This document shows positions 1-47,797 of a stretch of DNA of 47,797 bases, piece after piece. Positions within the stretch are counted from its first letter, which is position 1. The number at the start of each line of letters is the position of its first letter. The notes under the pieces are model-generated. The model was not told the DNA's origin. It was given only the letters and a program-made list of their open reading frames with translations, and made no database searches. The DNA comes from a virus (lineage: Duplodnaviria > Heunggongvirae > Uroviricota > Caudoviricetes). Location of the stretch: the IMG/VR virus record IMGVR_UViG_2571042438_000008. The stretch is one strand, 5' to 3'. A program made the translations under genes and the position numbers.

Positions 1-1
1 G

Positions 2-289
2 GTTGAAGATGTAGTAAATAGCTTGGGTGGAGAGGTAAACATAACAGAATGGTTTGAAACATCACCACCTGGCGAACCATATACAGCCTCAATTGTTGCT
101 TCGATTAACTCTTTTGATGGTGCTGTTCCTTCGAAAGAGATGTTGGAGGATACGTTAAGAAGTATCAAGAGTGCAAAGTCGGCAAGAACACTATTTACAT
201 TTTCGCAAGCAACCAATGTTTCAGGTGGTGTTGGTATTGTCGGTGCTTTCCAGCCTGTGTCTTATGTACGATTAATTGGTGAGTGCTAA
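2..289 (+). CDS. Tail/baseplate protein, P2 gpI-like, C-terminal part (same gene as 47254..47797 across the circular junction)
   Basis: The reading frame is continuous with the ORF that opens at ATG 47254. Bases 1-251 are identical to 47547-47797. The gene lies between the baseplate J-like gene and the tail fibre, as in P2/Mu-type tails. Confidence 0.7.
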   Translation, partial: VEDVVNSLGGEVNITEWFETSPPGEPYTASIVASINSFDGAVPSKEMLEDTLRSIKSAKSARTLFTFSQATNVSGGVGIVGAFQPVSYVRLIGEC

Positions 290-319
290 TTTGCGATTTG
301 TTAATCCAAGGAATTAAGC

Positions 320-3166
320 GTGAGTAAATTATTATTTACGATGACTGACGCCGGGCGTAAGGCGCTGGTTAATGCCAACAAGACTGGAACAAATAAAGTT
401 GAGATCGTTTCTGTTGGTTTAGGTAGTAGATATTATGCCACATCAACCACACAAACAAAAATAACAGATGAAATAAAGCGACTTACCACAATAGGAGGCA
501 AAGTCGTTTCTCCTGATACCATTCATGTAACTGCGAAGGATGATAGTAAAGATGAGTATGCTGTCCATACAATAGGTTTGTATACAAATAAAGGAACATT
601 GTTTGCTGTATACTCGCAAGAACAAGTAATAATAAATAAAGCATCTTCTACAATTGCTTTAATATCAAGTGATATAGCAATTAAAAATCTTGATACTAAA
701 AACATTACATTTGGTGATGTTGAGTTTATTAACCCTCCCGCAACCGAAACTGTTGTTGGAGTAGCAAGATTTGCTAATGAACAAGAAATTGATGCAGGTA
801 CAGATGATTCCCTGGCTGTTTCAGCAAAGCGGCTTAAGCAAGCTATTGTAAAACATGAGCAATCACGTAATCATCCTGATGCAACTTTAACATCAAAAGG
901 CATTGTTCAACTCAGTAATGCCACCAATAGCACGTCTGAAAAGCTCGCAGCGACGCCTAAGGCTGTTAAGGCTGCATATGACCTGGCTGACGGAAAATAT
1001 ACCGCCCAGAATGCCACCACGGCACAAAAAGGGATAGTTCAGCTCAGTAGTGCCACTAACAGTACGTCTGAAACGCAGGCGGCAACGCCAAAAGCGGTCA
1101 AGGCAGCAAATGACAACGCAAATTCACGTCTGGCGAAAAATCAGAACGGTGCAGATATCCAGGATAAATCAGCTTTTCTGGACAATGTTGGCGTTACCAG
1201 CCTGACGTTTATGAAAAACAATGGCGAAATGCCGCTTGATGCTGATCTGAATACGTTTGGTCCTGTTAAGGCTTATTCAGGTATCTGGTCTAAAGCAACA
1301 TCCACCAACGCAACACTGGAGAAAAATTTCCCGGAAGATAATGCTGTCGGTGTGCTTGAGGTTTTTGCTGCCGGCAATTTTGCAGGTACGCAACGCTTTA
1401 CCACGAGAGACGGCAATGTATACATGCGTAAACTCGCCAATAAGTGGAATGGCACTGATGGTCCGTGGGGCGTATGGCGTCACACTCAATCTGCTACCCG
1501 CCCTTTGAGTACGACTATAGACCTGAATACGCTTGGAGCCGCCGAGCATCTTGGTTTATGGCGTAACAGTAGCTCAGCTATAGCTTCATTTGCCCGCAAT
1601 TATCCGGAAGAAGGGAGCTATGCTCAGGGGATTCTCGAAGTTCTTGAAGGCGGCGGATATTCGCGAACACAGCGTTACACTACCAGTCGTGGAAATATGT
1701 ATGTACGCTGCCTTACCGCAAGCTGGGATGCATCAAATCCGCAGTGGGGACAGTGGCTAAGAATCGGCAGCCAGACTGCAAGCGGTTTCTTTGAAGGCGA
1801 TCTGAATAATCTGACCGATCCTGGTATTTACAGTGTTACAGGAAAGGCAACAAACGGTCCGATGCTGGACGCTGCTGGGGCGACATTGCTTGGGATACTG
1901 GAAGTAATCAGGCGTTTTGATGGTGTATCTGTCTGGCAGCGTTACACAACCACAGGAAAATCAGAAACCACACAGGGGCGCACTTTTGAGCGCGTCTACG
2001 CCGGGAGCACATGGACCGAATGGCGAGAAGTGTATAACTCCTTTTCGTTGCCCCTGAATCTGGGTATTGGCGGCGCAGTGGCAAAACTCACCAGCCTGGA
2101 CTGGCAGACCTACGACTTTGTGCCGGGCAGTCTGATAACCGTTCGGCTTGATAACATGACCAACATTCCCGACGGTATGGACTGGGGCGTCATTGATGGT
2201 AACCTGATAAACATCGCTGTTGGCCCAAGTGATGATACCGGTACGGGGCGCTCAATGAAGGTATGGCGCAGCACTGTAAGTAAAGCCAACTACCGCTTTT
2301 TTATGGTGCGCATTTCAGGAAATCCGGGAAGCCGCACGATCACAGCAAGACGAGTACCAATCATTGACGAAGCCCAGACATGGGGCGCGGAACAGACATT
2401 CAGCGGTGGTCTTTCAGGCGAACTATCCGGCAATGCTGCTACAGCAACAAAGCTGAAAACGGCAAGGACAATTAACGGCGTAAAATTTGACGGCTCGGCA
2501 AATATTGAAGCGTTTCCGCCAGGTGTTCCGCTGCCGTGGCCATCAGATACGCCACCTGCAGGTTATGCAATCATGCAGGGGCAGACGTTTGATAAGGCAG
2601 CATATCCGAAACTGGCTATTGCCTATCCTTCTGGTGTTATTCCAGATATGCGCGGCTGGACAATCAAGGGCAAACCCGCCAGTGGTCGGGCCGTATTGTC
2701 TCAGGAACAGGATGGCATTAAATCGCACACCCACAGTGCCAGCGCATCCAGTACGGATTTGGGTACGAAAACCACATCGTCGTTTGATTACGGTACTAAA
2801 TCAACGAATAACACAGGTGCACATACCCACAATGTATCTGGTACTGCAAATAGTGCTGGCGCACATACTCATACCGTTCCATTAAGGAGACCAAACAGTG
2901 GCGGTATGAATTTCGACTGGCTGGATGGTTCATCAAGTGGCACGGTGGTGGGGAATGGAACTGTGCCTTCTTCTGGCGCACATACCCACTCAGTATCAGG
3001 TACCGCTACAAGTGCTGGGGCACATGCACACACTGTTGGTATTGGCGCTCATACGCACTCTGTTAAGATTGGTTCACATGGACACACCATCACCGTTAAC
3101 GCTGCTGGTAACGCGGAAAACACCGTTAAAAACATCGCATTTAATTATATTGTGAGGCTTGCATAA
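320..3166 (+). CDS. Tail fibre protein (mosaic, side-tail-fibre type)
   Basis: 948 aa. Two copies of the conserved fibre repeat [24 protein letters not shown]. Three tandem ~85-aa knob-like repeats ([18 protein letters not shown] / [18 protein letters not shown] / [19 protein letters not shown]). The C-terminus carries GAHTHS/HxH repeats like T4 gp37, Mu S and lambda Stf-type fibres. It is followed by a Tfa gene. Confidence 0.9.
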
Positions 3167-3783
3167 TGGCATTCAGAATGAGTGAACAATCACGTACCGT
3201 AAAAATTTATAACCTGCTGGCCGGAACTAATGAGTTTATTGGTGAAGGTGACGCATATATTCCACCTCATACAGGGCTGCCAGCTAATTCTACAGATATC
3301 GCCCCACCGGAAATTCCTGCTGGCTTTGTGGCAGTTTTTAACAGTGAAAATGAATCGTGGAATATTGTTGAAGACCATCGTGGTAAAACGGTCTATGACG
3401 TGGCGTCGGGGGACGCATTGTTTATTTCTGAACTCGGACCGCTACCAGAGAATGTCACCTGGTTGTCGCCAGCAGGGGAGTATCAGAAGTGGGACGGCGT
3501 ATCCTGGGTGAATGATGAGGAAGCAGAAAAACTGTTTCGGATACGGGAAGCGGAAGAGAAAAAGGCAAGGTTGATCCAGGAAGCAACAGATAACATCGCA
3601 ATTCTGCAGGATGCAGTTAATCTTGAAATAGCAACAAACGAGGAAAATTCACAACTGGATTCCTGGAGAAAATACAGAGTATTAGTGAGTAGAATTGACA
3701 CCAGTACAGCTCCGGATATCGTATGGCCAGAGCTGATGAATCAGGGTTATGTTCGGGAGGACGAGCAGATAACTTCAGACTGA
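3166..3783 (+). CDS. tfa: Tail fibre assembly protein (Tfa / P2 G / Mu U family)
   Basis: The start overlaps the fibre stop (TAATG). The N-terminus ..[47 protein letters not shown].. is typical of the Tfa chaperone family. Confidence 0.85.
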
Positions 3784-4310
3784 AATTTAGTGATGAATGT
3801 TGAATCATCAGGAATATCATGCAATACCAATGCATGAGCACCTATTGTGACATTGTTTCCTATACGCACTTTGCCACCAAGAATGGTGGCATTACAACCA
3901 ATGGTCACATTATGCCCTATAACAATATCCATATCATTAAATTCCCCGCGAAGTCCAATAGTTACTCCGGGCTTAATTGAACAATTTTCACCGATTGTTA
4001 CTTTGTGACCGATAACAACACTGTTGAGATAAGAAATATCAAAGCCTTTCCCTATATTTACAGTTAAAGGGACTGTTACATTATATTTATCAAGAATGAA
4101 ACGTTCTATTTTTCCCGCAATCTTCCGACAGTATCCGCCTTTATCAAAAAGGTATTTGGCTATGCGCCACCAAAATAAATAACGAACCCTTCTATGTTTT
4201 ATTGCGCGAACAATTGCCTTTCGCCAGGAGAAAGGACGCTCGCTACCGATTACTTCATAGTGAATACAGTCTTTAAGTTCATTAATATTCATATCTTTAT
4301 TATTCAGCAT
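3747..4310 (-). CDS. Hexapeptide-repeat (LbH) O-acetyltransferase, WcaB/CysE-like; probable moron
   Basis: Repeated [LIV]-G-x4 hexapeptides ([49 protein letters not shown]). It is convergent with tfa and overlaps its 3-prime end by 37 bp. The region is visibly more AT-rich than its neighbours. Confidence 0.8.
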
Positions 4311-4725
4311 AAGATAATCATGTGACCAATTATTGTAATAATTTTAATGGTATGTTTCTACTGGCTATCCAGCGTGTCTGATATCCAGTAACAAATCGTC
4401 AACACGGGTGCAATCAAATGGTGAGTGTTAAGACTGACCACTTATTACCAGGTATGAGTGGCCAGCATTAAATCAGAACAGCCCTTTAACTGAACTGGCC
4501 GCGCTGTTAAGGGATGATGTCACCTTATCTTTGAAGCCGGACAGCATATTGCTGAACGATGAGTTTACCGCAGGTTTCTGGCTGGGAATCATTGACTGGA
4601 GTTAGGCCAGTAGTATGATGCTCGCAAAACGAGATCCAATTTAGATCCTTTTACTGGTGGATTATCGTTCGATCAGTGAGAGACTTCGTGCATGACCGAA
4701 AGTGTTGTGGTAGAGTTCTCTTAAA

Positions 4726-4740
4726 ACCACGTAACGTGGT
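4726..4740. promoter_or_regulatory. Perfect ACCAC-N5-GTGGT palindrome (operator-like) upstream of the repA control region
   Basis: The sequence is ACCACGTAACGTGGT. The same 5+5 palindrome occurs at the cI/cro intergenic region (14748, 14851) and downstream of cI (13997). Confidence 0.5.
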
Positions 4741-4782
4741 TATGATTGTGGGTGTCTGGTTGGAAAGTGACCAGATATGGAA

Positions 4783-4897
4783 ACAAAAAGCCCGCAGATA
4801 AATCTGCGGGCTTCTTGCGACATCCACGGAAAACCAACAACTAACCATGGGCGCCTCGACAACTCCCATTATACGTTGGTTTTCCGTGGACGCAAGA
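4783..4897 (-). ncRNA. Candidate CopA-like antisense RNA controlling repA
   Basis: Read on the minus strand there is a 22-bp interrupted stem (4814-4838 / 4875-4896) with a 36-nt loop. It is followed by the GC hairpin GCCCGCAGA-TTTA-TCTGCGGGC (4790-4811) and a U-run (complement of 4781-4789). A weak promoter-like TAGAGA-N17-TATGTT sits just upstream on the minus strand. The position immediately 5-prime of repA matches IncFII copA/copT. Confidence 0.55.
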
Positions 4898-4905: not shown

Positions 4906-5754
4906 ATGGATAGACCAATGCCGTCTCTACGTTCAGCTTACGTTTGTAATTTGTCGCCGGAGTTCCAGCCTCCAAAGCACCATACGCACAAGCTGCCGCT
5001 GGTGTTATCTGATGCTTTACAGCGCATTAATGGGCGTGATCTTACGTGTGAGGTTGCGTTCTACGTTAATCAACCGTCAGAGCGGAAGCGCCGGATAAAC
5101 GAGCATCGTCGTCGGGCGATTAATGCTGTGATCGCTGCGATTTTGCACCATGTAAACATCATTTCTAAGCGGGTTCTGGCCAGTGCTGAGGCGTTGGCTG
5201 ATTTTTGCGGCCTGTCTACCGTATCCGAAGCTGGGAACAAGTCTATAACGCGCTGTACAAGGGCGTTGTCGCAACTGAAAGCGTTAGGTTTTATTGATTA
5301 TGAACGTCGCTGGGATCGGGTGAATAAACAGTATTGGCCAGCGAAAATAGAGATTCGTGATCAACTGCTGGAAACCGTTGGTATTACTGAACAAGCATGG
5401 AGACGTGCGGTTAGCCAGAAACTTAATTACTTCAATGCGAAGAATAGCGAACGGCTTAAAAAAGCGATAACGGAGGCTGATTATAAGCGTATTGTTATTC
5501 AGGAGCAGATGGAGAATGTATGGCATCAGAGGAAGACGGCCAGAGAGATAAAGGCAAAACAGAAAGCAGCGGAGAGAGCTGCGCGTCTTGTTCGGGAAAA
5601 GGGAGAGGCCGAACTTCGTCATCAAATCACTAGAGAGGTTAGCCAGGAATTTGCTGATGGCATGTATCCTGGAGCTGACCTTGCATATTTACGATCCCTC
5701 GTTGAGCAGCGTTATAACAGGTTAAGAAAGACCTGGAAATCACTCCAACATTAA
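4906..5754 (+). CDS. repA: Plasmid replication initiator, IncFII RepA family
   Basis: 282 aa from ATG 4906; the ORF is open from 4777 but that part is the hairpin region. The core RRAINAVIAAILHH..GNKSITRCTRALSQLKALGFIDYERRWD parallels the R1/R100 RepA1 core as I recall it (RRAIDALLQGLCFHY..GKLSITRATRALTFLSELGLITYQTEYD). A DnaA box and an AT-rich origin follow the gene. Confidence 0.85.
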   Translation: MDRPMPSLRSAYVCNLSPEFQPPKHHTHKLPLVLSDALQRINGRDLTCEVAFYVNQPSERKRRINEHRRRAINAVIAAILHHVNIISKRVLASAEALADFCGLSTVSEAGNKSITRCTRALSQLKALGFIDYERRWDRVNKQYWPAKIEIRDQLLETVGITEQAWRRAVSQKLNYFNAKNSERLKKAITEADYKRIVIQEQMENVWHQRKTAREIKAKQKAAERAARLVREKGEAELRHQITREVSQEFADGMYPGADLAYLRSLVEQRYNRLRKTWKSLQH

Positions 5755-5759: not shown

Positions 5760-6030
5760 CTGAATGATGAATCCGGTTTTACCGGAGGATTATCTACGTC
5801 GCAATAAAATATCTGTTCAAAAAACAATCTAAATTAATTTTCTCTAAACCGGAACACAGCAAAAATATCGCCTTTACAGGCATCGGCTAATAAAGTTATC
5901 CACAGTTTTGATATGTATATGCAAATGGTTTTTTATAATAGATGCACTAAACAAATAAATGCAAAATCACTTTCTTTTATTAAGACTTTCTTTATTTAAC
6001 TTACGCAGGCTTTGCCTGTGAATATGTTCG
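5760..6030. other. Probable plasmid origin (oriR-like, AT-rich, downstream of repA)
   Basis: An AT-rich, ORF-free block directly after repA, as in IncFII replicons. It contains a consensus DnaA box. Confidence 0.6.
5896..5904 (+). promoter_or_regulatory. DnaA box, perfect consensus TTATCCACA
   Basis: An exact 9-mer inside the AT-rich region after repA. Confidence 0.7.
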
Positions 6031-7113: not shown

Positions 7114-7141
7114 GGTGCCGATAACGTCCATTATGTTAAAT
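7114..7141 (+). other. dif/cer-like XerC/XerD recombination core site (multimer resolution)
   Basis: GGTGCCGATAA-CGTCCA-TTATGTTAAAT compared with E. coli dif GGTGCGCATAA-TGTATA-TTATGTTAAAT. The XerD arm matches 11/11, the XerC arm 9/11, and the spacer is 6 bp. Confidence 0.7.
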
Positions 7142-7206: not shown

Positions 7207-7216
7207 AGGATTGAGC

Positions 7217-7564
7217 ATGTGGACGGTACTTTTTAGCCAGCGATTTGACGACTGGCTAAATGAGCAAGAAGACGCTCTTCAGGAAAAGGTTTTGGCTGAT
7301 TTGAAAAAGCTACAGGTTTACGGACCTGAGTTACCCAGGCCATATGCCGATACCGTAAAAGGTTCTCGGTACAAAAATATGAAAGAGCTTCGCGTTCAGT
7401 TTTCTGGCCGTCCGATAAGAGCCTTTTATGCGTTCGATCCGATTCGTCGGGCCATCGTTCTTTGTGCAGGAGACAAAAGTAACGATAAGCGGTTTTATAA
7501 AAAACTGGTGCGTATAGCTGAGGATGAGTTTGCAGCACATCTGAACACACTGGAGAGCAAGTAA
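7217..7564 (+). CDS. higB: Type II toxin, HigB-like / RelE-ParE superfamily (phage Gp49-type)
   Basis: 115 aa. The block ..YGPELPRPYADTVKGSRYKNMKELRVQFSGRPIRAFYAFDPIRRAIVLCAGDK.. is typical of the killer-protein family. The toxin-first order with an overlapping XRE antitoxin (ATGA-type junction) fits HigBA. Confidence 0.8.
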   Translation: MWTVLFSQRFDDWLNEQEDALQEKVLADLKKLQVYGPELPRPYADTVKGSRYKNMKELRVQFSGRPIRAFYAFDPIRRAIVLCAGDKSNDKRFYKKLVRIAEDEFAAHLNTLESK

Positions 7565-7863
7565 TGAGAACATTAGATGAGGTGATTGCCAGCCGTTCAC
7601 CTGAAAGCCAGGCGCGAATTAAAGAAATGGCAGATGAGATGATTCTTGAGGTCGGCTTGCAGATGATGCGTGAAGAACTCCAGTTATCACAAAAACAGGT
7701 TGCTGAGGCGATGGGTATAAGCCAGCCAGCAGTAACAAAGCTGGAGCAGCGCGGAAATGATTTAAAGCTGGCGACATTAAAGCGTTACGTTGAAGCTATG
7801 GGAGGCAAATTAAGCCTGGATGTTGAGCTTCCTACAGGAAAGCGAGTAGCGTTCCATGTCTAA
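7564..7863 (+). CDS. higA: Type II antitoxin, HigA-like XRE-family HTH
   Basis: The HTH is LSQKQVAEAMGISQPAVTKLEQ. The start overlaps the toxin stop. Confidence 0.8.
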   Translation: MRTLDEVIASRSPESQARIKEMADEMILEVGLQMMREELQLSQKQVAEAMGISQPAVTKLEQRGNDLKLATLKRYVEAMGGKLSLDVELPTGKRVAFHV

Positions 7864-11175: not shown

Positions 11176-11399
11176 TTTGCACCTCCCATAACTACTTTGG
11201 TTACGAGGGAGATTTTTGCGTCAGAAACAGCGTTATCGTTGCTGGCGATGCGCATAGCTTCGCGCTCGATGATTTCAGTCAGGCGGAATTTATCGGCGTA
11301 TGAGGCTTTCTTGAGAAGGATCTTTACGAGGTTGACGTAATAGTCATGGGGTAGGTTTGTCATTGTGATATCTCCAGTATATGGAACTATCACCGCCAT
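11172..11399 (-). CDS. Small protein translationally coupled to ant (position equivalent to P1 icd); alternative start ATG 11363 with a GGAG Shine-Dalgarno
   Basis: 75-aa ORF (63 aa from 11363). Its stop overlaps the ant start codon. I make no family call. Confidence 0.55.
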   Translation of the reverse strand: MAVIVPYTGDITMTNLPHDYYVNLVKILLKKASYADKFRLTEIIEREAMRIASNDNAVSDAKISLVTKVVMGGAK

Positions 11400-11413
11400 T
11401 CGAGGCTAATCAA

Positions 11414-37522: not shown

Positions 37523-38004
37523 TTAATCTTTTGATAGATGCAATAAAAAATCGGTTGGAACATGAGGTTTTCCATGATTTATTAGTGCAGGGGCCTCCTT
37601 ATGATGAAACAGACAGCGATATTAAATTGTTTGTTCCAACAATATTTAAAGGGTACTTGCCTCCTAAATCACAACCATCTCCAGATAAACCGCCAGAATT
37701 TCCTCATGTGATTATCAGACCCACGGAAGGAGGAATGCAGCCTGAAACGGATGAAGTTAAGGTTAAGTTTCTTCTAGGTGGTTTTTGTGAGGACCATACT
37801 GGGTATGAATGGGTAATGGCTCTTCTTGAAAGGATGATGTTTCATTTTCAGGAGAAGCCTTTACTTGAAGAGAAATTTCTCTTTCAGGGTGATATCAGAT
37901 GGCGAATGTTTGATGATCAACCATATCCATATTGGATAACGGAAGCAACTGGAACGTGGCTAGTATTAAAGCCTCAGAATATTCAGTCTCAGGAGTTTAT
38001 CTAA
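37519..38004 (+). CDS. Head-tail joining / tail completion candidate
   Basis: 161-aa ORF (TTG start) with an overlapping junction. Confidence 0.5.
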   Translation: MINLLIDAIKNRLEHEVFHDLLVQGPPYDETDSDIKLFVPTIFKGYLPPKSQPSPDKPPEFPHVIIRPTEGGMQPETDEVKVKFLLGGFCEDHTGYEWVMALLERMMFHFQEKPLLEEKFLFQGDIRWRMFDDQPYPYWITEATGTWLVLKPQNIQSQEFI

Positions 38005-38295
38005 ATGGCTAATAAGAAAAGTAGTAAAGAAGATATAGAAAAGAAGGAAGATGTTGCTCAAACATTTGTATATATAGGACCAACAATCCCTCAACTCTCA
38101 ATTTTGAAGCATAAACTATTTAAGAATGGCTTATCTCCAGAGTGTGAAAAATTAATATCACATATTCCTGGTGCAAAGTGTTTGTTTGTGGCAACCAGTG
38201 ATTTTGCAGATGCAGAAAAAAGACTTTCTGATAAAACCAGTGTCGAGTATGTAATGTACTCTAGAGTTTCTTCTTCTATCATGGAGATTAAATAA
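38005..38295 (+). CDS. Hypothetical virion-module protein
   Basis: 96-aa ORF directly upstream of the sheath gene. Confidence 0.5.
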   Translation: MANKKSSKEDIEKKEDVAQTFVYIGPTIPQLSILKHKLFKNGLSPECEKLISHIPGAKCLFVATSDFADAEKRLSDKTSVEYVMYSRVSSSIMEIK

Positions 38296-39758: not shown

Positions 39759-39774
39759 ATAATAGGAGGTTGCT

Positions 39775-40296
39775 TTGAGCAATCAAATTCCTGAGAGACT
39801 TATTAACTTTACAGTATACGGTGAGGGAAACCGTATTATCGGTGTTGCTGACGCAAAGCTGCCATCAATTGAGATGATGACAGAAACTGTTAGTGGTGCA
39901 GGTATCGCTGGAGAGCTTGATAGCGGAACGCTGGGGCATTTCAAACCAATGACTGTCTCTCTTAAATGGCGAACTCTGACCTCTGCTGGTACAAAATTAT
40001 TTCTATCCTCATCGCATCAGGTAGATTTTCGCGGTAGCCAGCAGGTTTATGATGCCGGAACAGGAAAATATAAAACGGTTCCTATTCGAGCTTCAATGAA
40101 GCTAAATCCTAAAAAACTGGATTTGGGTTCGCTACAGGTAGCAAAGGCCACTGATTCAGAAAATGAATTCGAAGTTCTCTATATCAAATTATTTATTGAT
40201 GGGAAAGAAGTCTTAGAAATTGATAAGTTGAACTTTATTTGTATCTTTGATGGCGAAGATATATTAAAAACTGTTCGTGATGATTTAGGTTTATAA
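39775..40296 (+). CDS. Tail tube protein (P2 FII family)
   Basis: LINFTVYGEGNRIIGVADAKLPSIEMMTETVSGAGIAGELDSG matches the FII-type signature. Confidence 0.8.
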   Translation: MSNQIPERLINFTVYGEGNRIIGVADAKLPSIEMMTETVSGAGIAGELDSGTLGHFKPMTVSLKWRTLTSAGTKLFLSSSHQVDFRGSQQVYDAGTGKYKTVPIRASMKLNPKKLDLGSLQVAKATDSENEFEVLYIKLFIDGKEVLEIDKLNFICIFDGEDILKTVRDDLGL

Positions 40297-40305
40297 GGTG
40301 AAAAA

Positions 40306-40587
40306 ATGGAAACCGTTAAATTAAGTAAAGAATATCGTTTTGAAGACTTTGAGCCAGTGACTGAACTCAACCTTGATTTAGACAACCTAAAAGGCAGTGA
40401 TATTTTAGAGGTATCGGACTTACTGCAATCTCAAGGGCATGTTTCAGTTCAAACATCACTTGATAATAAAGTCCATGCAGCCTTGGCTGCTCGCTGTATT
40501 GGTCGTCCAATAGAGTATCTGAATGGATTACCAGCGAAAGACTTTGTTAAAGTTTGTCAAAAGGTACAGAATTTTTTGCTCTCGTAG
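40306..40587 (+). CDS. Tail assembly chaperone (P2 gpE-like)
   Basis: 93 aa between the tube and tape-measure genes. The slippery heptamer lies near its 3-prime end. Confidence 0.75.
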   Translation: METVKLSKEYRFEDFEPVTELNLDLDNLKGSDILEVSDLLQSQGHVSVQTSLDNKVHAALAARCIGRPIEYLNGLPAKDFVKVCQKVQNFLLS

Positions 40588-40736
40588 GTTTTGATGAGCA
40601 AAAACCTATTGATAAGCAAATAATGAGGGCCGCGAGTTCTCTATCTCAATCATCTCAATCAACACCTATATCCTACTGGCTTTCGCTTCGGTTGAGGCGA
40701 ATCGTCGCATGGATTGACGTGTTTAATGAGGATTAA
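40306..40736 (+). CDS. Tail assembly chaperone, -1 frameshift product (gpE+E-prime-like)
   Basis: TTTTTTG at 40572-40578. The -1 frame is open from there (..FFALVGFDEQKPID..) to 40736, just before the tape-measure start. Confidence 0.7.
40572..40578 (+). other. Programmed -1 ribosomal frameshift slippery site TTTTTTG
   Basis: Same heptamer and same position as the P2 E/E+E-prime frameshift. Confidence 0.7.
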
Positions 40737-40741
40737 TACTA

Positions 40742-43534
40742 ATGGCCAGCAATAAGAACTTTAAGCTGGCTTTTGAAATTGGCGGCAAAGTTGCCGCCTC
40801 TCTCCCCAAAAGTTTTACTACAGCTAATCAGGCTGTTGCTAAATTAAATGCCGAGCTTGCTGGATTAACGAAAGAACATGGGGAAATTCAAAAGCTACAA
40901 TCTGTAAAAGTAAAGGTTGGACAGACTGCCCTCGAATATCATAAAGCTGCCGCTCGCGTTGAAGAGTTACAGAAGCAAATAAAAAACACGGCCAATCCAA
41001 CCAGAGCGATGCTTCGTGACTTTGAGAAGGCAAAAACACATTCATCGAATTTACGAGCATCACTACGTTCTCAGCGTGAAGAACTGGCCGCTTTAAAGTC
41101 TGCCTATCAGGGAGCTGATACATCTGCCAGAGCTTTGGCCTCAAGAGAGAAAGAGCTTAAAGCCAGCATTGATCGTAATCGTGAGGCTCAGGCCCGTAGC
41201 GTTGAGCAGGTTAACCGCTACAGAACGGCTTTGGCTTTAGCCAGAGCAAATGTTCAGCAAGTGAAAAAACAGCAGGAGGAACTTAACCGGGCATTAGAAA
41301 AACAACGTATTGATAAAATTAACAGCTATAAAAATGCGTTGGCTGAAGCACGGAAAAATGTTCTTGCAGTAAAACGTGCTCAGGAGGAGTTAAACCGCGC
41401 GTTGGAAAGGCAGCGTGAATTGAAGCGAGAGCATCTTGGTGAGGCAAAGAGTCAACTTGTAAGGTCAGGATTACAAACTGGTGCTGTAGCGGCTGGTGCA
41501 TTTGCTGCTGCTAACAATGCAGCAAATTTCAATCGTGAAAACAAAATGATTGGTCTTACGGCAGATATGAAGCCGGAAGAAGTTCAGGCGATGGGGCAGG
41601 CGATGCTTGTTACCGGAACGGCTACCAACCAGTTTGCATCTGATATTCAGGCCGCTCAGGGTTTTCTCGTCGCTGCTGGGCAGGATTATAAAGAGGCTCA
41701 GGCGAATCTACTAACTATTGGGCGAACAGCTACAGCTACTGGCTCTGATATCCTCGATGTCTCGAAAGCATCATTTACATTAAGTGACTCATTGAAGATT
41801 GATCCATCTCAAATGAAGTCTGCAATGGGGATTCTGGTTCAGGCAGGGAAAGAGGGGAACTTTGAATTTAAAGATATGGCCAAAAATCTTCCTGTGCTTG
41901 GTGCTCAGTTCCAGGCATTAAAAATGGGAGGTAAAGAAGCAGCCGCGACGATGGGTGCAGCTTTGCAGATAGCTCGCAAGGGGGCTGCAACTTCGGATGA
42001 GGCTGCTAATAATATGAACAACTTTTTGGCAAAAATACTTTCCCCTGAAACACTAAAAAAAGCAAAGAAAAATTTCGGTGTAGATTTATATAAAATTGTT
42101 ACAACAGCGCAGAAAAAAGGGAAGAATCCATTCGAAGCTGCAATGCATTCTGTCATGAAAATGACTAAGAACGGAGATCAGAAGTTACTTGGTGAACTAT
42201 TTGGCGATATGCAGGTTCAGAACTTTGTTCGTCCGATGATTCAAAACTGGAAGGAATACCAGAGAATCAAAGCAACATCTCTTGGAGCTGGAAGTGCTGT
42301 TATTGACCGCGATTTTGCCAACATAACGAAAGATAATGCGGAGCGATTGAAACAATTACGTATTCAGGCTAGCAATGCATCATTAAGTTTTGGTCAGGCC
42401 TTGCAACCTGCTTTGAATGCCGCGCTTAGTGTTTTGGTTCCGCTGATTACAAAAATTAGTGAATTTGTAGCTAACAACCCCAATTTTGTGTCTCAGATAG
42501 TGATGGCGGCAGGTGCGTTTCTAACCATGAAAAGTGTGGTTATAGCGTGTAGGGTAGCTATGCTGGCTTTATCTGTAGCGACAAAGCTAACACCCTTCGG
42601 GTGGATTCAGATGGCTATATCTGCGCTGGTTGCCGCAGGAATATTGCTCTATCAGAATTGGGATAAGATCAGAGATTATGCTGTCAGAGTTTGGCCTTCT
42701 GTTAAGGAATATACAGTTAAATCATTTGAGGCTATAAAAAACTTTATCTTAAACTTTGACCTCAATGGATGGATTATATCTATGTTTGGTAAAGCATGGG
42801 ATTATCTTTCCAACATAAACTGGAGTTCGGCAGGTGTAAGAATTTACAGTACATTAATTAGTGCTTTTAAATGGATGTCTCCGCTTCCGTTCTTAATTAA
42901 AGCATTTAAAATTACAACAAATTACCTTTCTGGCATTAACTGGAGCGAAACAGGAAAGAAAATCATAGATACACTGGTATCTGTTTTTATGCGTTTTTCA
43001 CCAGTTGGACTCTTTATAAGAGCATTCCAATCTGTAACGACTTATTTATCTGGAATAAACTGGAGTGAGTCAGGCGCAAAAATAATTGAGACGTTAATCA
43101 CTGGGATAAAATCAAAAGCAAATGCTTTAATTAATGAAGTGAAAGGCGTTTTTTCTTCTGTACGTGAGTATTTACCGTTCTCTGACGCGAAAAAAGGTCC
43201 ATTCTCACAGCTAACAAAGTCAGGTGGTGCAATAATGACTACTCTGGCATCAGGTGTTAGCAGGAATAACAGCTTACAGAATGCAATAGCAAGCAAGTTC
43301 GGGCAATCAAATTTATCACCTCACGGGATATCTGCCGCCGGGACTTCTGGACCTCGCCAGAACGTTAACGCTGTGACTGGTGGAATAACCTATTCACCTG
43401 TAATCAATCTTCCGGCTGGTTCACCAAAGGAAACTGAGGCGGCAGCTAAAAGAGCATTAGATGCGGGATATTCTGATTTTGAGAAGAAATTGAGTGCTCA
43501 TATGTTCCAACAACGGAGATTAAGTTTTGGATGA
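40742..43534 (+). CDS. Tail tape measure protein
   Basis: 930 aa with an N-terminal coiled coil, a central TM-like hydrophobic block and repeated WS..G motifs. It follows the chaperone pair. Confidence 0.9.
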   Translation: MASNKNFKLAFEIGGKVAASLPKSFTTANQAVAKLNAELAGLTKEHGEIQKLQSVKVKVGQTALEYHKAAARVEELQKQIKNTANPTRAMLRDFEKAKTHSSNLRASLRSQREELAALKSAYQGADTSARALASREKELKASIDRNREAQARSVEQVNRYRTALALARANVQQVKKQQEELNRALEKQRIDKINSYKNALAEARKNVLAVKRAQEELNRALERQRELKREHLGEAKSQLVRSGLQTGAVAAGAFAAANNAANFNRENKMIGLTADMKPEEVQAMGQAMLVTGTATNQFASDIQAAQGFLVAAGQDYKEAQANLLTIGRTATATGSDILDVSKASFTLSDSLKIDPSQMKSAMGILVQAGKEGNFEFKDMAKNLPVLGAQFQALKMGGKEAAATMGAALQIARKGAATSDEAANNMNNFLAKILSPETLKKAKKNFGVDLYKIVTTAQKKGKNPFEAAMHSVMKMTKNGDQKLLGELFGDMQVQNFVRPMIQNWKEYQRIKATSLGAGSAVIDRDFANITKDNAERLKQLRIQASNASLSFGQALQPALNAALSVLVPLITKISEFVANNPNFVSQIVMAAGAFLTMKSVVIACRVAMLALSVATKLTPFGWIQMAISALVAAGILLYQNWDKIRDYAVRVWPSVKEYTVKSFEAIKNFILNFDLNGWIISMFGKAWDYLSNINWSSAGVRIYSTLISAFKWMSPLPFLIKAFKITTNYLSGINWSETGKKIIDTLVSVFMRFSPVGLFIRAFQSVTTYLSGINWSESGAKIIETLITGIKSKANALINEVKGVFSSVREYLPFSDAKKGPFSQLTKSGGAIMTTLASGVSRNNSLQNAIASKFGQSNLSPHGISAAGTSGPRQNVNAVTGGITYSPVINLPAGSPKETEAAAKRALDAGYSDFEKKLSAHMFQQRRLSFG

Positions 43535-43745
43535 TTATAGAACGGTTCAAGGGGACTCATGGGATAGTATCGCTTTAAAGTTGTATGGTAATGAGTACCT
43601 GTCTTATCTTCTTATTGATGCTAATACTGAGCACCGCTTTACGGTGCTTTTTTCTGCGGGAATTATTCTTAAAGTTCCTGATGCTCCGGTTATGCCAATA
43701 TCAGTAAACAATTTTCCTCCGTGGAGACGCAATAGTGTTACGTAA
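43527..43745 (+). CDS. Tail protein X-like (LysM domain)
   Basis: YRTVQGDSWDSIALKLYGNEYLSYLLIDAN..ILKVP is a LysM pattern, as in P2 gpX. Confidence 0.7.
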   Translation: MDDYRTVQGDSWDSIALKLYGNEYLSYLLIDANTEHRFTVLFSAGIILKVPDAPVMPISVNNFPPWRRNSVT

Positions 43746-44736
43746 AACGCTTTTTGATGTTATATATCAGAATGTAAATATTACCGCTCATATGTCACCT
43801 GATGTTTTGTCAATGTCTTATACAGATAATGAAGATGGTCAGGTCGATGATATTTCTATTATATTAAAAAATGATGATGGGAAATGGTCTGGAGACTGGA
43901 CACCTAAAAAGGGTGATTTTATTGATTTGAGCTTTAAGCCTATAAATCAAATCGTCCTTGAGTGCGGGAAATTCCAGGTAGATGGCATAACTTGCTCTGG
44001 ACCACCTTCTGTGGTTGAGGTAACTGCTGTTTCTGTTCCTATTTCATCAGGCATTAGACGTGATTTAAAAAGTAATGCATGGGAAAAAACAACTCTTAAA
44101 GATATAGCAACTTCTATAGCTAAATTAGCTAACCTTGAACTGTTGTTTCTTATTGATGGTGATAGTAATCCATATTATGCACGTGAAGATCAAATGGAGG
44201 AAAGCGATTTAAAATTTCTCCATCGACTTTGCCAGGATGAAGGGTTGTCGTTAAAGGTCACTGATAGCCAATTAATAATATTTGCTCAAGAGATGTTTGA
44301 GCAAAAAGATCCTATCGCTACGCTTACGTTAGGTATTGATGAGATAATCAGATATAGCTTTAGCACACAATCTACAGATTTGTATAAAAGTTGCACGTGC
44401 AAATATCGCGTACCTAAAAAAAGAAAGTCGCTTTCGTATACTTGGGTAGATCCATCCGTAGAAGAAGGGTCGAATCTTAAGATAAGAAAACTGGTAGCTA
44501 ATTTAGATGAAGCAAAACGTAAGGCAAAGGCTGCTTTGCGGCTTAAAAATAGATATCAAAATACCGGATCTTTAGTATTGGTTGGAGACACCAGATTGGT
44601 AGCTGGTGTAACTATAAATCTGGAGGGATTCGGTTCATTTTCTGGAAAATATCTTATATCGAAAGCTGTGCATTCAATTGGGACTAGTGGTTATACCACC
44701 TCGATTGATGTCCGAAGAGTAATTAATGGGTATTAA
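43735..44736 (+). CDS. Baseplate hub / late control gpD-like protein
   Basis: 333 aa, positioned after X and before the spike. The size and position fit gpD/Mu gp44-type proteins. Confidence 0.65.
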   Translation: MLRKTLFDVIYQNVNITAHMSPDVLSMSYTDNEDGQVDDISIILKNDDGKWSGDWTPKKGDFIDLSFKPINQIVLECGKFQVDGITCSGPPSVVEVTAVSVPISSGIRRDLKSNAWEKTTLKDIATSIAKLANLELLFLIDGDSNPYYAREDQMEESDLKFLHRLCQDEGLSLKVTDSQLIIFAQEMFEQKDPIATLTLGIDEIIRYSFSTQSTDLYKSCTCKYRVPKKRKSLSYTWVDPSVEEGSNLKIRKLVANLDEAKRKAKAALRLKNRYQNTGSLVLVGDTRLVAGVTINLEGFGSFSGKYLISKAVHSIGTSGYTTSIDVRRVINGY

Positions 44737-44738
44737 TT

Positions 44739-45359
44739 ATGAATGATTTAGAAACATTATTACGTCAGACTATAAGAGTTGGCGTTGTTTCTGATATTGA
44801 TGATGGTGATGTTACAGCAAGAGTTACTTTCGATGATCAGGATAACGTCACTTCGGCAAAGTTATCAGTTATTGTGAAAAATACAGATAAGAATGCTGAT
44901 TACTGGATGCCAGATATTGGTGAGCAAGTTTTGTGTATCTTTCATCCCGCGGGGCCGCAACAAGGTTTTATTCTTGGTAGTTTTTATGATGAAACACAGA
45001 AGCCGCCATCTAATACTGTTAATAAACGCGTCATTAGATTTAATAACGGAACTCGTATTGAGATAGACAGAGAATCTAATTTACTCCTTGTTGATGCTGT
45101 CGGAGATGTAACCATTAAGGCTACAGGAACCGTAACTATTGATGCTCCAGAAACCATCATTACCGGAAATGCTACAGTTGAAGGATTACTAACCTTCAAA
45201 GGTGGAATGAAAGGATCTTCTGCTGGAGGTGTTGCAGCTACAATTTCTGGGAATGTTAAGGTTGTTGGTGGTGATATAGATGTTGATGGGATTAAATCTA
45301 AAGGCCACCATCACACAGCTCAGGGGGAATACGCTCCGACAACGGAGGCTCAGGCATGA
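44739..45359 (+). CDS. Baseplate central spike (P2 gpV-like)
   Basis: An OB-fold-like N-terminus (RVGVVSDIDDGDVTARVTFDD), a beta-helical repeat region and a C-terminal His-rich apex (KGHHHTAQG). Confidence 0.7.
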   Translation: MNDLETLLRQTIRVGVVSDIDDGDVTARVTFDDQDNVTSAKLSVIVKNTDKNADYWMPDIGEQVLCIFHPAGPQQGFILGSFYDETQKPPSNTVNKRVIRFNNGTRIEIDRESNLLLVDAVGDVTIKATGTVTIDAPETIITGNATVEGLLTFKGGMKGSSAGGVAATISGNVKVVGGDIDVDGIKSKGHHHTAQGEYAPTTEAQA

Positions 45360-45823
45360 TTGTGGGTATGCTTGGTACAATGCCTTTTGTTGCCTCATCA
45401 ATAGTGGTGAATACGTTCAACAATTTTAAAAGGACGTCAAAGCGTCGTGTAGCGCGCCATGATGTTATTGGGCTTAAACCTGTTCTGGAGGATATAGGTC
45501 CAGATCTGGATGAAGTTAGTTTTAATATGCGGTTGGATACAACACTTGGCATTGTTCCATTGGCTGCGCTTTCATTACTTAGGACAATGCAATCAATTCA
45601 GGAAGTAAATCCTGTTGTAATTGGTATTCAGTATTTTGGTAATTTTATAATTACAGATATAGAGGAATCATGGACTTATTTCGGTCCAACTGGGAATCCA
45701 CGAGTGATTATCGTCGGCATTAAATTACAGGAAGTCGGACAGACCTCTCTGAAAGAAGCATTAGTTGATATTGCTGGCAATATAGAGTCAAAAACTAGAA
45801 GTGCGTTAGGTAAATTATTATGA
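45356..45823 (+). CDS. Tail protein, P2 gpU-like
   Basis: ..RRVARHDVIGLKPVLEDIGPDLDEVSFNMRL..LLRTMQS..PVVIG..GNFIITDIEESWTYFGPTGNPRVIIVGIKLQEV follows the GpU family pattern as I recall it. Confidence 0.55.
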   Translation: MIVGMLGTMPFVASSIVVNTFNNFKRTSKRRVARHDVIGLKPVLEDIGPDLDEVSFNMRLDTTLGIVPLAALSLLRTMQSIQEVNPVVIGIQYFGNFIITDIEESWTYFGPTGNPRVIIVGIKLQEVGQTSLKEALVDIAGNIESKTRSALGKLL

Positions 45824-46140
45824 ATAATACGTTTACCATATCATCACCTTCTTACTCGATTGATTGGTCGCCCAAAACAGTTGTAGAAGAAGTTTTGCAA
45901 AATGTCTCTACTATTATTAATACTCAAATTGGCACTGTACCATATGCCAGAAAATTAGGAATTAATTCAAGTCTTGTTGATAGCCCTAGTCCAATTTTTA
46001 TTGCTACAGCAACACGAGAAATAATTCAAAAAATTAGTGAGTTTGAGCCTAGAGCGATTATCCATTCTGTTACTTTTGAAAGAACGGACGTTTCTGATGG
46101 TTTTATTAGGCCAAAACTTGTGATAGGAGTTAGAGAATGA
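45820..46140 (+). CDS. Baseplate wedge protein (GPW/gp25 family)
   Basis: 106 aa immediately upstream of the J-like gene. ..VLQNVSTIINTQIGTVPYARKLG.. is a gp25-like pattern. Confidence 0.75.
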   Translation: MNNTFTISSPSYSIDWSPKTVVEEVLQNVSTIINTQIGTVPYARKLGINSSLVDSPSPIFIATATREIIQKISEFEPRAIIHSVTFERTDVSDGFIRPKLVIGVRE

Positions 46141-47261
46141 CGTTGCCGCGTGGTGGTTTGCCAGATATTACTTTCGCAGATTCTAACCCGACTGATATAA
46201 CAACTCGTTCAATCAGGGCTTTTGAGAGTATAACAGGTGAAACATTAGCACCTGCTGATCCACGTAGATTATTCATCTTATCATTGTGTGAGATTATTAT
46301 ACAGCAAAGAAAAGCTATCGATTTTTCTGCAAAACAAAACCTTCTTACATATGGTGAAGGTGAATATCTCGACCATATAGGCTATCTGACGGATACGCCT
46401 AGGCTGGAAGCTCAATCTGCCTTGACTACATTTGAGTTTAATCTGTCAACAAAATTATCGGGGATATATACAATACCTGCTGGCACTCAAGTTTCAACTG
46501 GAAATGGTGTTATTTTCCAAACAGATATTTTGTTGGAAATACCTGCTGGGAAAACAGTTGGTACAGTCTCAGGATATGCTGTTATACCTGGTTTATCTGG
46601 GAATGGCTTTTTACCAGGGCAAATAAATGAGTTGGTGACTCCGTTGCCGTATGTTTCCAGCGTAAGGAATGTAACAACATCTAATTCTGGTGCTGATACG
46701 GAGTCAGATGATAATTATGCTGAAAGAATAAAACTGTCGCCGGAAAAACTGTCTACAGCAGGGCCGGAGGATTCTTATAAATATTGGACAAGAACAGCCA
46801 ATCAGAATATAAAAGATGTGAATGTATATACACCATCGCCCGGAATTGTAGAAATCCGTTCTTTGTTAGAGAACGGAGATATACCTTCTAATGAACTATT
46901 AGAGCAGATAAATAGCGTTCTCTCTGCAACTAATATTCGACCATTCACAGATAAAGTTCTTGTTAAGAAACCAGAGAGCATTGAATACGATATAATAATT
47001 AAATACTGGATTAACTCATCGGACAAAAACAGAACAACTTTAATTCAAAGTGAGGTTGAGAAAGCTATTGATGAGTATAAACAATGGCAACGTTCGGTTA
47101 TGGGAAGAGATATAAATCCAGATGAAATTATTCAACGTTTAAAAAATGCTGGGGCTAAAAGATTAGAAATATCAAGTCCTGTTTTTACTGTGATTGGAGA
47201 GACACAGGTCGCCAGAGAGAGAAATATAAATTGCCAGTATGCGGGGTTAGAGGATGGCTGA
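46137..47261 (+). CDS. Baseplate protein J-like
   Basis: 374 aa, with position and size matching P2 J / Mu gp47. Confidence 0.8.
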   Translation: MTLPRGGLPDITFADSNPTDITTRSIRAFESITGETLAPADPRRLFILSLCEIIIQQRKAIDFSAKQNLLTYGEGEYLDHIGYLTDTPRLEAQSALTTFEFNLSTKLSGIYTIPAGTQVSTGNGVIFQTDILLEIPAGKTVGTVSGYAVIPGLSGNGFLPGQINELVTPLPYVSSVRNVTTSNSGADTESDDNYAERIKLSPEKLSTAGPEDSYKYWTRTANQNIKDVNVYTPSPGIVEIRSLLENGDIPSNELLEQINSVLSATNIRPFTDKVLVKKPESIEYDIIIKYWINSSDKNRTTLIQSEVEKAIDEYKQWQRSVMGRDINPDEIIQRLKNAGAKRLEISSPVFTVIGETQVARERNINCQYAGLEDG

Positions 47262-47797
47262 TATCTTTAATGTTAGCTTGTTGGATGTTTTACCTCCTAA
47301 CTTAGCTAGCGATCCCAACGTGATAGCTATGTCGAAAGCTATTGATGATGAACTACAAGCAATTAACAATTTAATATATAAGACAGAAATATATAGCGTT
47401 GTTGATAACCTGGACTCAGTTGTTCTCGATCATTTAGCTTGGCAATGGAATGCTGATACATGGAGGGATAGTTGGCCTGTATTGTTAAAGCGTTCTGTTT
47501 TTAAATCAATAATACGAACAAAGCGAATAAAGGGTACAAGGGCAGCGGTTGAAGATGTAGTAAATAGCTTGGGTGGAGAGGTAAACATAACAGAATGGTT
47601 TGAAACATCACCACCTGGCGAACCATATACAGCCTCAATTGTTGCTTCGATTAACTCTTTTGATGGTGCTGTTCCTTCGAAAGAGATGTTGGAGGATACG
47701 TTAAGAAGTATCAAGAGTGCAAAGTCGGCAAGAACACTATTTACATTTTCGCAAGCAACCAATGTTTCAGGTGGTGTTGGTATTGTCGGTGCTTTCC
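47254..47797 (+). CDS. Tail protein, P2 gpI-like (N-terminal part; runs off the window end and continues at 2..289); not in the supplied ORF track
   Basis: ATG 47254 overlaps the J stop. It translates MADIFNVSLLDVLPPNLASDPNVIAMSKAIDDEL..LDHLAWQWNADTWRDSWP..KRIKGTRAAVEDVVNSLGG, which is a gpI-family pattern. No stop is reached before the window end. Confidence 0.75.
   Translation, partial: MADIFNVSLLDVLPPNLASDPNVIAMSKAIDDELQAINNLIYKTEIYSVVDNLDSVVLDHLAWQWNADTWRDSWPVLLKRSVFKSIIRTKRIKGTRAAVEDVVNSLGGEVNITEWFETSPPGEPYTASIVASINSFDGAVPSKEMLEDTLRSIKSAKSARTLFTFSQATNVSGGVGIVGAF
47547..47797. repeat. Terminal overlap: exact copy of bases 1-251 (circular assembly artefact or circular permutation)
   Basis: Read directly: both segments start GGTTGAAGATGTAGTAAATAGC and end ..GTCGGTGCTTTCC. 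Confidence 0.95.

Follow-up and report, generated by a model that had tools for sequence, protein, structure and literature searches.

Genome organization and circularity

The stretch of DNA analyzed here (the window) is the whole viral record IMGVR_UViG_2571042438_000008 of IMG/VR, 47,797 nucleotides long and assigned to the Caudoviricetes. It carries the virion and lysis genes of a myovirus together with a plasmid backbone composed of the initiator RepA, a ParA partition operon, an XerCD site and a toxin-antitoxin pair. The coordinates are listed in Table 1. Bases 1-251 are exactly identical to bases 47547-47797, and no longer terminal overlap was found. The window thus closes into a circle of 47,546 bp with a G+C content of 44.6%, as a preliminary description made from the same DNA had claimed.

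The nearest record is p142_C, a circular RefSeq plasmid of Escherichia coli strain 142 (NZ_CP048340.1, 47,545 bp). The identity to p142_C is 99.97% across window positions 7278-47546 and 97.9% across 1-7277. Since the stretch of lower identity spans the tail-fiber-to-dif region, the window is, on this comparison, a close recombinant relative of p142_C and not p142_C itself.

Virion genes and the lack of integration genes

The packaging, head and tail block runs from 29446 over the circle junction up to 3783. In the annotation of p142_C by the Prokaryotic Genome Annotation Pipeline (PGAP), the head and packaging genes encode a ParB-like nuclease, the small terminase subunit TerS, a lambda gpA-type large subunit TerL, a head-tail adaptor, a portal, a ClpP-type protease, a gpD-like decoration protein and a gpE-like capsid protein. 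The tail genes encode the sheath, tube, chaperones, tape measure, the P2-type baseplate proteins gpX/D/V/W/J/I, a fiber and a fiber chaperone. The virion genes of Vibrio phage X29 are colinear with these over 22 homologues, at 27-66% amino acid identity. Together with two holins, a GH108 endolysin and a spanin, these data verify that the element encodes a full virion and a lysis cassette, as had been described.

No integrase, recombinase or transposase was present in the PGAP annotation of p142_C or in scans of the window with Pfam, PHROG and NCBIfam, and the same scans gave no helicase, primase, O, P, DnaC or RepL family. The O-like, DnaC-like, single-stranded DNA-binding (SSB) and two integrase-family proteins of X29 had no tblastn match in the window. 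All open reading frames (ORFs) of at least 150 amino acids were accounted for, apart from antisense ORFs and one 171-amino-acid ORF with no family match. The earlier statement that integrase, helicase, primase and O/P-type genes are lacking is therefore borne out, as far as these methods reach. The accompanying statement that there is no recombinase holds for the window copy. In many relatives, among them the plasmid of ATCC 25922 and the Yersinia phages, a Hin-type invertase for tail-fiber switching adjoins repA.

Distribution on plasmids and in phage records

The repA-origin segment was found in 71 of 5,426 complete E. coli genomes (~1.3%). All 82 places were on plasmids, of roughly 47-52 kb with a few truncated or enlarged, and none was chromosomal. 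The virion module was found in 72 complete E. coli genomes, with 96 of 97 places on plasmids. A search at lower stringency gave no diverged chromosomal relatives in E. coli. The hosts include ATCC 25922 ('Seattle 1946'), ECONIH1, ST131 isolates, E. albertii, E. fergusonii and, with one plasmid, Klebsiella aerogenes. Syntenic sister lineages were found as Salmonella plasmids of 44-49 kb, as 46-48 kb contigs in K. aerogenes, Enterobacter cloacae and Citrobacter, and as a 28-kb contig in Yokenella.

Three genomes about 98% identical to the window have been deposited as the Yersinia phages vB_YpM_39, vB_YpM_41 and vB_YpM_44, propagated on Y. pestis EV76. Their deposit as phages is the sole evidence, and an indirect one, that the family forms infectious myovirus particles. 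The only other close phage records are two partial E. coli prophage records, and nothing P1-like is among the close nucleotide matches. In databases the family comprises about 60 PLSDB records and the three phage records. A supplementary table (PMC10100714) names one member, pDETEC34 (CP116126), under 'phage-plasmid' and gives no description of it. The partial copies vB_EcoM-613R2 and 473R2 were deposited via a preprint as PHASTER-predicted prophages, and their plasmid-prophage nature was not recognized. No paper on vB_YpM_39/41/44 was found, nor, within incomplete access to the literature, one describing the family. The family, coherent and so far uncharacterized, occurs in Escherichia and has sister lineages in Salmonella, Klebsiella, Enterobacter, Citrobacter and Yokenella.

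Table 1 Features of the window, in order of position. Coordinates refer to the window unless p142_C is named.
Feature	Position	Strand	Basis and remarks
Terminal duplication	1..251 (= 47547-47797)	n/a	Exact identity; assembly leftover of a circle
Tail fiber (320-3166) and tail-fiber assembly protein (3166-3783)	320..3783	+	PGAP names; P2-like fiber matches; weak X29 homology
Hexapeptide-repeat acetyltransferase (cargo gene)	3747..4310	-	Pfam Hexapep 1e-12
Candidate repA promoter TTGACT-16-TATGAT	4592..4619	+	Consensus scan 10/12; kept in the Salmonella sister lineage
CI-type operator palindrome ACCACGTAACGTGGT in the repA leader	4726..4740	n/a	Perfect ACCAC-N5-GTGGT
Candidate antisense (countertranscript) RNA, ~80 nt	4779..4861	-	Promoter and terminator hairpin in the sequence; folds z = -8.2, -5.8
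23-bp stem-loop in the repA mRNA leader, predicted to sequester the repA Shine-Dalgarno AAGAG (4893-4897)	4813..4897	+	Fold z = -8.4
repA, replication initiator of the IncFII/IncL-M RepA superfamily	4906..5754	+	PF02387, NF040977; ORF open from 4777
Candidate origin: perfect DnaA box TTATCCACA (5896-5904), then AT-rich stretch and repeated (G/T/A)ATGCA motifs	5896..6010		
dif/psi-like XerC-XerD site GGTGCCGATAA-CGTCCA-TTATGTTAAAT	7114..7141	+	2 mismatches to dif; 0 expected
HigB-like toxin (7211-7564) and helix-turn-helix (HTH) antitoxin (7564-7863)	7211..7863	+	Pfam Gp49 (PF05973) 2.4e-23; HTH_3 4e-10
113-bp promoter/5' untranslated region (UTR) cassette, three copies	8339-8452, 17292-17409, 24171-24287	+	
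Antirepressor operon: isrK-like RNA (11599-11526), C4 antisense RNA (11501-11413), 75-aa ORF (11399-11172), ORF6N+Rha antirepressor (11175-9976)	9976..11599	-	
ryfA-family RNA with 40-aa hydrophobic ORF (12118-12240, MKKYCMCIFIVVTGALF...)	11971..12267	+	Rfam RF00126, 141.8 bits
Partition operon: small Walker-type ParA (12783-13451) and 82-aa partner (12491-12739)	12491..13451	-	Pfam CbiA, ParA, MipZ
AT-rich repeats upstream of parA, candidate centromere or operator	13460..13564, also 12752-12780	n/a	13 motif copies versus 0 expected
TATAATTATAGATTTATATAA motif copies	8342, 12752-12780, 13460-13561, 17288-17319, 18508, 23030-23066, 24174-24197		
CI-type operator between cI and the orf124-parA operon	13997..14011	n/a	Kept in Salmonella and K. 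aerogenes
CI-like repressor, 218 aa: N-terminal HTH_3, degenerate S24-like C-terminal domain	14054..14710	-	Pfam HTH_3 4.5e-11
O_R-like region: operators 14748-14762, 14829-14844 (imperfect), 14851-14865	14748..14865		Around early promoter TTGAAA-17-TTTAAT
Early operon: 164- and 171-aa family-specific proteins, Ref nuclease, DUF1064, DUF3560, MarR-like, ASCH-like, Ead/Ea22	14885..21233	+	
Lysis cassette: two holin-family genes, GH108 endolysin, Rz-like spanin	21424..22906	+	PGAP names; PHROG spanin 1.3e-31
tRNA, anticodon CAT	23200..23275	+	ARAGORN: Met; PGAP: Ile2
Pre-late region: MT-A70 methyltransferase, cassette copy 3, small ORFs, two ParB_N-domain proteins, 239-aa 'minor tail' PHROG protein	23584..28888	+	
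Non-coding region, putative cos/packaging site	28889..29445	n/a	Upstream of packaging genes
Virion module	29446..47797	+	PGAP names; gpI crosses the circle junction to 289
PGAP-flagged accessory genes	p142_C 1616-1889, 3494-3898, 16307-16893, 18233-18643		Frameshifted, partial or internally stopped

A temperate myovirus, probably kept as a low-copy plasmid

The window is very probably the complete genome of a phage-plasmid: a temperate myovirus whose lysogenic form is a circular low-copy plasmid in the host. The gene scans and the plasmid-only distribution of the repA-origin segment both uphold the central claim of the preliminary description, which was a complete circular temperate myovirus on a plasmid backbone (RepA, ParA, XerCD site and toxin-antitoxin) without integrase.

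The one virion-module place of the 97 that is not on a plasmid speaks the other way. It is a partial copy on a chromosome record, among the lowest-coverage matches, and it counts in favor of the window being an ordinary integrative prophage seen as an excised circle, or a mis-assembled contig with its integrase elsewhere. We consider this scarcely credible. No integrase or att-like feature lies in the element, and its set of replication, partition, dimer-resolution and addiction genes is complete. The repA-origin places come from independent finished assemblies by many laboratories, and the same architecture is seen in the Salmonella plasmids.

The window copy might also be a defective or domesticated plasmid prophage, which is maintained as a plasmid and no longer makes infectious particles. 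PGAP flags four accessory genes in the near-identical p142_C, where the MT-A70 gene and a small HTH gene are frameshifted, the ORF6N part of the antirepressor is 'partial' and one hypothetical ORF has an internal stop, so the copy could be partly impaired. Some relatives are truncated (records of 31-39 kb) or carry insertion sequences. However, the virion, packaging and lysis genes are without exception intact and share 99-100% identity with those of relatives, and the antirepressor in the window is a single uninterrupted ORF of 399 amino acids. The flags fall on accessory genes, the frameshifts may be assembly errors, and genomes of the same family were deposited as isolated phages. A defective copy is judged improbable.

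The repA replicon and its origin

RepA matched the Pfam family IncFII_repA (PF02387) with E=1.2e-43 and 150 bits (cut-off 22.9) and the NCBIfam family RepA_IncFII_LM (NF040977) with 231 bits (cut-off 70). The strict incFII equivalog TIGR03474 was failed, with 77 bits under a cut-off of 446.9. In a tblastn search, RepA proteins with at least 80% identity were found on 62 PLSDB plasmids, and the next best, outside the family, is 37% identical. The identity to canonical IncFII RepA is ~27-41%, in partial alignments over 29-67% of the length. No replicon type is assigned to p142_C by PLSDB/MOB-suite, which gives only 'non-mobilizable', and a RepA scan across the GTDB species-representative genomes gave no match. 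Because TIGR03474 was failed, the nearest outside RepA is so distant and MOB-suite types nothing, RepA is, by these scores, a distant branch of the IncFII/L-M superfamily and not the replicon of an IncFII incompatibility group. The 'IncFII-type repA' first described thus stands at the superfamily level and falls at the level of strict IncFII.

The annotated repA ORF has 325 amino acids from 4777, and from 4906 RepA has 282. The start is likely the ATG at 4906, because the Salmonella homologue is annotated from the equivalent position and has no ATG matching 4777. The DnaA box that had been noted is part of the candidate origin; it is the sole perfect copy in the window and lies about 140 bp past the repA stop. 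The DnaA box and AT-rich block are kept in Salmonella; the 140 bp preceding the block are not.

The repA leader is strongly structured (z = -8.2 to -8.4). In the 23-bp stem that would hide the Shine-Dalgarno sequence, two base pairs have changed in a compensatory way between E. coli and Salmonella. A candidate antisense promoter on the minus strand, TTGCGT (4895-4890)-16-TATAAT (4873-4868), lies within the loop of this stem-loop, and its candidate terminator is a hairpin at 4815-4786 followed by a U run. The candidate promoter and the loop are invariant in Salmonella. Between the repA promoter and repA there is no ORF of copB size.

Two further elements of the leader were observed. Just past the repA promoter is a conserved two-GATC arrangement, GATCC-N6-GATCC (4634-4649), with an equivalent in a relative. 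A short conserved leader ORF of 9-10 codons (4693-4725) stops directly before the CI-type operator.

The CI-like repressor and its operators

The CI-like repressor scored 18.4 bits against Peptidase_S24, below the cut-off of 23.3. At the position of the catalytic serine motif, all three lineages (E. coli, Salmonella and K. aerogenes) have DELM. Set against the LexA/CI motifs, this suggests that the catalytic residues are missing from CI and that it does not cleave itself.

The perfect palindrome ACCAC-N5-GTGGT occurs five times in the window, versus 0.01 expected, and four copies are in regulatory DNA. Two are O_R-like, one is between cI and orf124-parA, and one is in the repA leader between the candidate promoter and the hairpins. 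The fifth, in a tail gene, is probably a chance occurrence because it is absent at the equivalent place in the Yersinia phage. With the imperfect copy, three palindromes lie within the 175-bp intergenic region from cI to the early operon. A CI-type palindrome with one mismatch was also seen at 11659-11673, upstream of C4/isrK; it was not found at the homologous Salmonella place.

The leader operator was compared with that of the Salmonella Weltevreden plasmid NZ_LN890526, whose repA region is 74.5% identical to the window at the nucleotide level. The position of the operator is unchanged; 10 of 10 arm bases are retained and 3 of 5 spacer bases differ. In K. aerogenes, the sites visible have identical arms and other spacers. 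Fixed arms with a free spacer are, as a pattern, the mark of a protein-binding palindrome. Because this CI-operator palindrome is kept in the repA leader of a diverged Salmonella lineage, the comparison suggests that the phage CI repressor controls repA replication through the leader operator, as in N15. In both Salmonella and K. aerogenes, the DNA-binding domain of CI is the same as in the window, and so are the half-sites.

The first rightward gene encodes a 164-amino-acid protein found only in the family, and no Cro or Q homologue was detected among the window ORFs in the Pfam, PHROG and NCBIfam scans. Of the CI/Cro/Q-like switch reported initially, the CI-like repressor with divergent operators is upheld; Cro and Q are not.

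In the antirepressor operon, C4 (RF01695) scored 70.8 bits versus a gathering threshold of 45 and isrK also matched at gathering level with 68 bits. The antirepressor matched ORF6N (4.5e-20) and Phage_pRha (4.6e-12). These matches identify the second immunity layer as a predicted P1/Gifsy-like module of C4/isrK RNAs and antirepressor. The order of C4/isrK RNAs, small ORF and antirepressor is that of P1/P7 immI and Gifsy-1. SOS control was considered and rejected: the sole LexA-box pattern lies inside a structural gene at chance level, and none precedes the antirepressor operon.

Partition, dimer resolution and toxin modules

ParA has 221 amino acids and no HTH domain, and its CbiA, ParA and MipZ matches cover residues 9-190. 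The NCBIfam ParA_partition match (4.6e-22) is below the cut-off. The 82-amino-acid partner is confined to the phage-plasmid family. Its structure model has a disordered N-terminal 40 amino acids, then two helices at a predicted local distance difference test (pLDDT) score of 77-90, and is compatible with a ParG-like fold.

The AT-rich motif TATAATTATAGATTTATATAA, with up to 3 mismatches allowed, has 13 copies in the window versus 0 expected, each just upstream of a gene start, including parA and the partner. The motif could serve as a centromere, or as an operator through which the ParA partner or a different regulator acts globally.

In the dif-like site, the XerD arm matches dif at 11 of 11 positions, the XerC arm differs at two, and the spacer has 6 bp. 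In Salmonella both arms are unchanged and the spacer has one change. This site and the HigBA module, in which the toxin gene (PGAP name 'RelE/ParE family toxin') comes first, are as originally described. The ryfA RNA region beside the partition genes may be a TimP/TimR-like type I toxin module.

One ATCC 25922 assembly (NZ_CP032086.1) has a plasmid record of 94,204 bp with the element twice, versus 48,488 bp in other assemblies. The doubling reflects either dimerization or faulty assembly, and is relevant to the XerCD site.

A proposed single replicon for lysogeny and lytic growth

A mechanism can be proposed from these components. During lysogeny, RepA would fire the origin together with host DnaA. 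RepA synthesis would be limited by the ~80-nt antisense RNA, by the stem-loop hiding the ribosome-binding site and by the CI-like repressor at the leader operator. ParA and its partner would segregate the copies, host XerCD would resolve dimers at the dif-like site, and HigBA, possibly with the ryfA/TimP-like module, would kill element-free cells. The early operon would be shut off by CI at the three O_R-like operators. Because CI appears to be without self-cleavage residues, induction would probably proceed through the ORF6N-Rha antirepressor, which would itself be held down by the C4/isrK-type RNAs. Loss of CI would derepress the early genes and repA together. The same replicon would then amplify the genome in lytic growth, and concatemers would be cut at cos upstream of the terminase genes.

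In the boldest form of this mechanism, one IncFII-superfamily replicon serves both lifestyles via the CI operator in the repA leader, and loss of the repressor turns a partitioned low-copy plasmid into a runaway packaging template. The family would be a distinct and widespread type, derived from an X29-like myovirus whose integrase and O/DnaC modules were replaced. This form is tentative, and we would give it less than an even chance.

Several findings weigh against the mechanism. The link between CI and repA consists of a single operator copy and of its conservation in lineages whose CI proteins all have the same DNA-binding domain, and the operator lies ~110 nt downstream of the predicted repA promoter. 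The window has no match to Rfam CopA or any other replication-control RNA family, at gathering score or at E up to 10. The antisense hairpins first reported correspond to the structured leader with its convergent candidate RNA. Searches of the PDB by phmmer and Foldseek gave no sequence or fold match of the ParA partner to ParG or any ribbon-helix-helix (RHH) protein. The claimed pair of parA and a small RHH partner is accordingly confirmed for ParA and for the presence of an 82-amino-acid partner gene, and not for the RHH fold. Finally, several early proteins are orphans restricted to the family (15 clusters among 5.8 billion proteins), and with Ref and DUF1064 they could offer another route of lytic replication.

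Some of these points would also fit a phage-plasmid in which lytic DNA synthesis is independent of RepA derepression. The first early genes, which are such orphans, or DUF3560 might encode an unrecognized replication function (the 164- and 171-amino-acid proteins being the candidates), or the encoded Ref nuclease and DUF1064 might support recombination-dependent replication, and the leader operator, single and distant from the promoter, would only tune copy number or be idle. We regard this as rather doubtful. The unassigned early proteins have at most 203 amino acids except DUF3560. The C-terminal half of DUF3560 matched a PHROG labeled 'primase'. The homologues of this protein are DUF3560 proteins of plasmids and integrative conjugative elements, and its confident structure model shows no primase, helicase or initiator fold. 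The lack of any O, P, DnaC, RepL, helicase or primase family match in the window and the retention of the leader operator in Salmonella, with fixed arms and a free spacer, also argue against this alternative. Control of repA by a phage repressor has a worked precedent in N15/phiKO2 (PMC4997575).

Packaging site, cargo genes and repeat cassette

The non-coding region upstream of the packaging genes probably holds the cos/packaging site, because the start of a Yersinia phage record maps there (its initial 128 nt align with window 29044-29171) and in the linear record of X29 the homologous gene follows 139 nt after the start. X29 also has a ParB-like nuclease gene beside its genome end. Three ParB_N/Srx-domain proteins were observed near the packaging genes (26156-28152 and 29446-30036). 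One is fused to a methyltransferase, and none is a partition ParB.

The ORF at 3747-4310 was considered as an invertase and ruled out by Pfam, which identifies it as the hexapeptide acetyltransferase. In many relatives this slot holds instead an invertible tail-fiber segment with a Hin-type invertase or 'recombinase family protein'. The exchange of acetyltransferase and invertase is a cargo variation in host range or surface modification. The corresponding slot was located in the records of two relatives at 21532-23828 and 25037-27328.

In the 113-bp cassette, the AT-rich motif is combined with a promoter-like TTTACA-17-TATGGT, whose spacer holds the palindrome GGAAAAAATTTCC, and with an identical 5'UTR and a Shine-Dalgarno sequence. 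Each copy finishes at the ATG of a different gene, namely a 126-amino-acid protein (8449-8829), DUF3560 and an 89-amino-acid protein. Because the copies are near-identical inside E. coli and likewise inside Salmonella while differing between these lineages, the comparison indicates that they have been under concerted evolution. The cassette shares its AT-rich motif with the par operon and may be a second global regulatory circuit.

Comparison with known phages and plasmids

Ten phage-plasmid types have been curated (P1_1, P1_2, N15, SSU5_pHCM2, pMT1, pKpn, pSLy3, pCAV, AB_1 and cp32), and none resembles the family (PMC12977533). Non-membership was judged from the published type table, by gene repertoire, size and morphology. 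This agrees with the first description, in which the P1, N15 and SSU5 types were set aside. Membership in the pSLy3 group was considered and dropped, as pSLy3 is SSU5-related.

The closest parallel in regulation is N15/phiKO2, whose CB repressors occupy operators at the repA promoter and reduce copy number (PMC4997575). In both systems a temperate phage is kept as a plasmid on a single repA replicon, the repressor is (here by prediction) without self-cleavage residues and an antirepressor forms a second immunity layer. The prophage repressor acts at three O_R operators and at operators at repA in N15/phiKO2 (PMC4997575), and the same is predicted here from the sequence. The two are unrelated in sequence. 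N15 is a linear siphovirus that encodes a protelomerase and whose RepA is a large primase-helicase, whereas the element is a circular myovirus with a 282-amino-acid IncFII-superfamily RepA, an antisense-RNA-type leader and an XerCD site.

With P1/P7 the element shares the circular plasmid prophage, the contractile tail, a C4 RNA upstream of the antirepressor operon, the Ref nuclease and, in many relatives of the window, the tail-fiber invertase. P1 has a 94-kb genome, an iteron-type RepA, ParA/ParB-parS, Cre-lox, Phd-Doc, a separate lytic replicon repL and headful packaging. The element differs in its IncFII-family RepA, its small ParA with the 82-amino-acid partner, the host XerCD site, HigBA, a lambda-type terminase and head, and half the genome size.

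The Vibrio phages X29, phi 2 and Rostov 7 have the closest characterized virion module, with TerL 63-65% identical. X29 differs by two integrase-family proteins, an O-like initiator, a DnaC-like loader, SSB, Dam and exonucleases, none of which has a homologue in the window, and it has no RepA or ParA. The element likely originated from an X29-like integrative phage in which the integration and replication modules were swapped for a plasmid backbone.

The replicon resembles IncFII plasmids (R1/R100/NR1) in its PF02387/NF040977 RepA, an origin with a DnaA box ~140 bp past repA, and a structured leader with a convergent short-RNA candidate. It differs in having no CopA match, no copB gene and no MOB-suite type. 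IncFII has CopB control where the element carries a phage repressor operator. The XerCD site shares the 11-bp XerC and XerD arms and the 6-bp spacer of ColE1 cer, pSC101 psi and dif; its XerD arm is identical to that of dif, and its XerC arm departs at two positions. The partition operon resembles the type Ib system (TP228 ParF/ParG) in a ~220-amino-acid ParA without N-terminal DNA-binding domain, a very small partner modeled as a disordered tail ahead of two C-terminal helices, and AT-rich repeats upstream. The partner differs from TP228 ParG in having no detectable sequence or fold match to ParG/RHH proteins.

Biological significance

The element belongs to the known class of phage-plasmids, as a new and uncharacterized family and not as a new kind of element. 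Phage-plasmids spread genes, including resistance genes, through both infection and plasmid inheritance, and typing schemes cover only ten groups. Among finished E. coli genomes, ~1.3% carry the present family, and ATCC 25922, the strain used universally for quality control, is one of its hosts. It extends to several further enterobacterial genera, and its usual annotation is that of a cryptic, untypable plasmid. Recognizing it would improve plasmid and prophage annotation. The family shows cleanly how an integrative phage lineage and a plasmid backbone can exchange modules. The proposed repressor-replicon design, for which N15 is a precedent, would make it a small and tractable model of a phage repressor governing a plasmid replicon.

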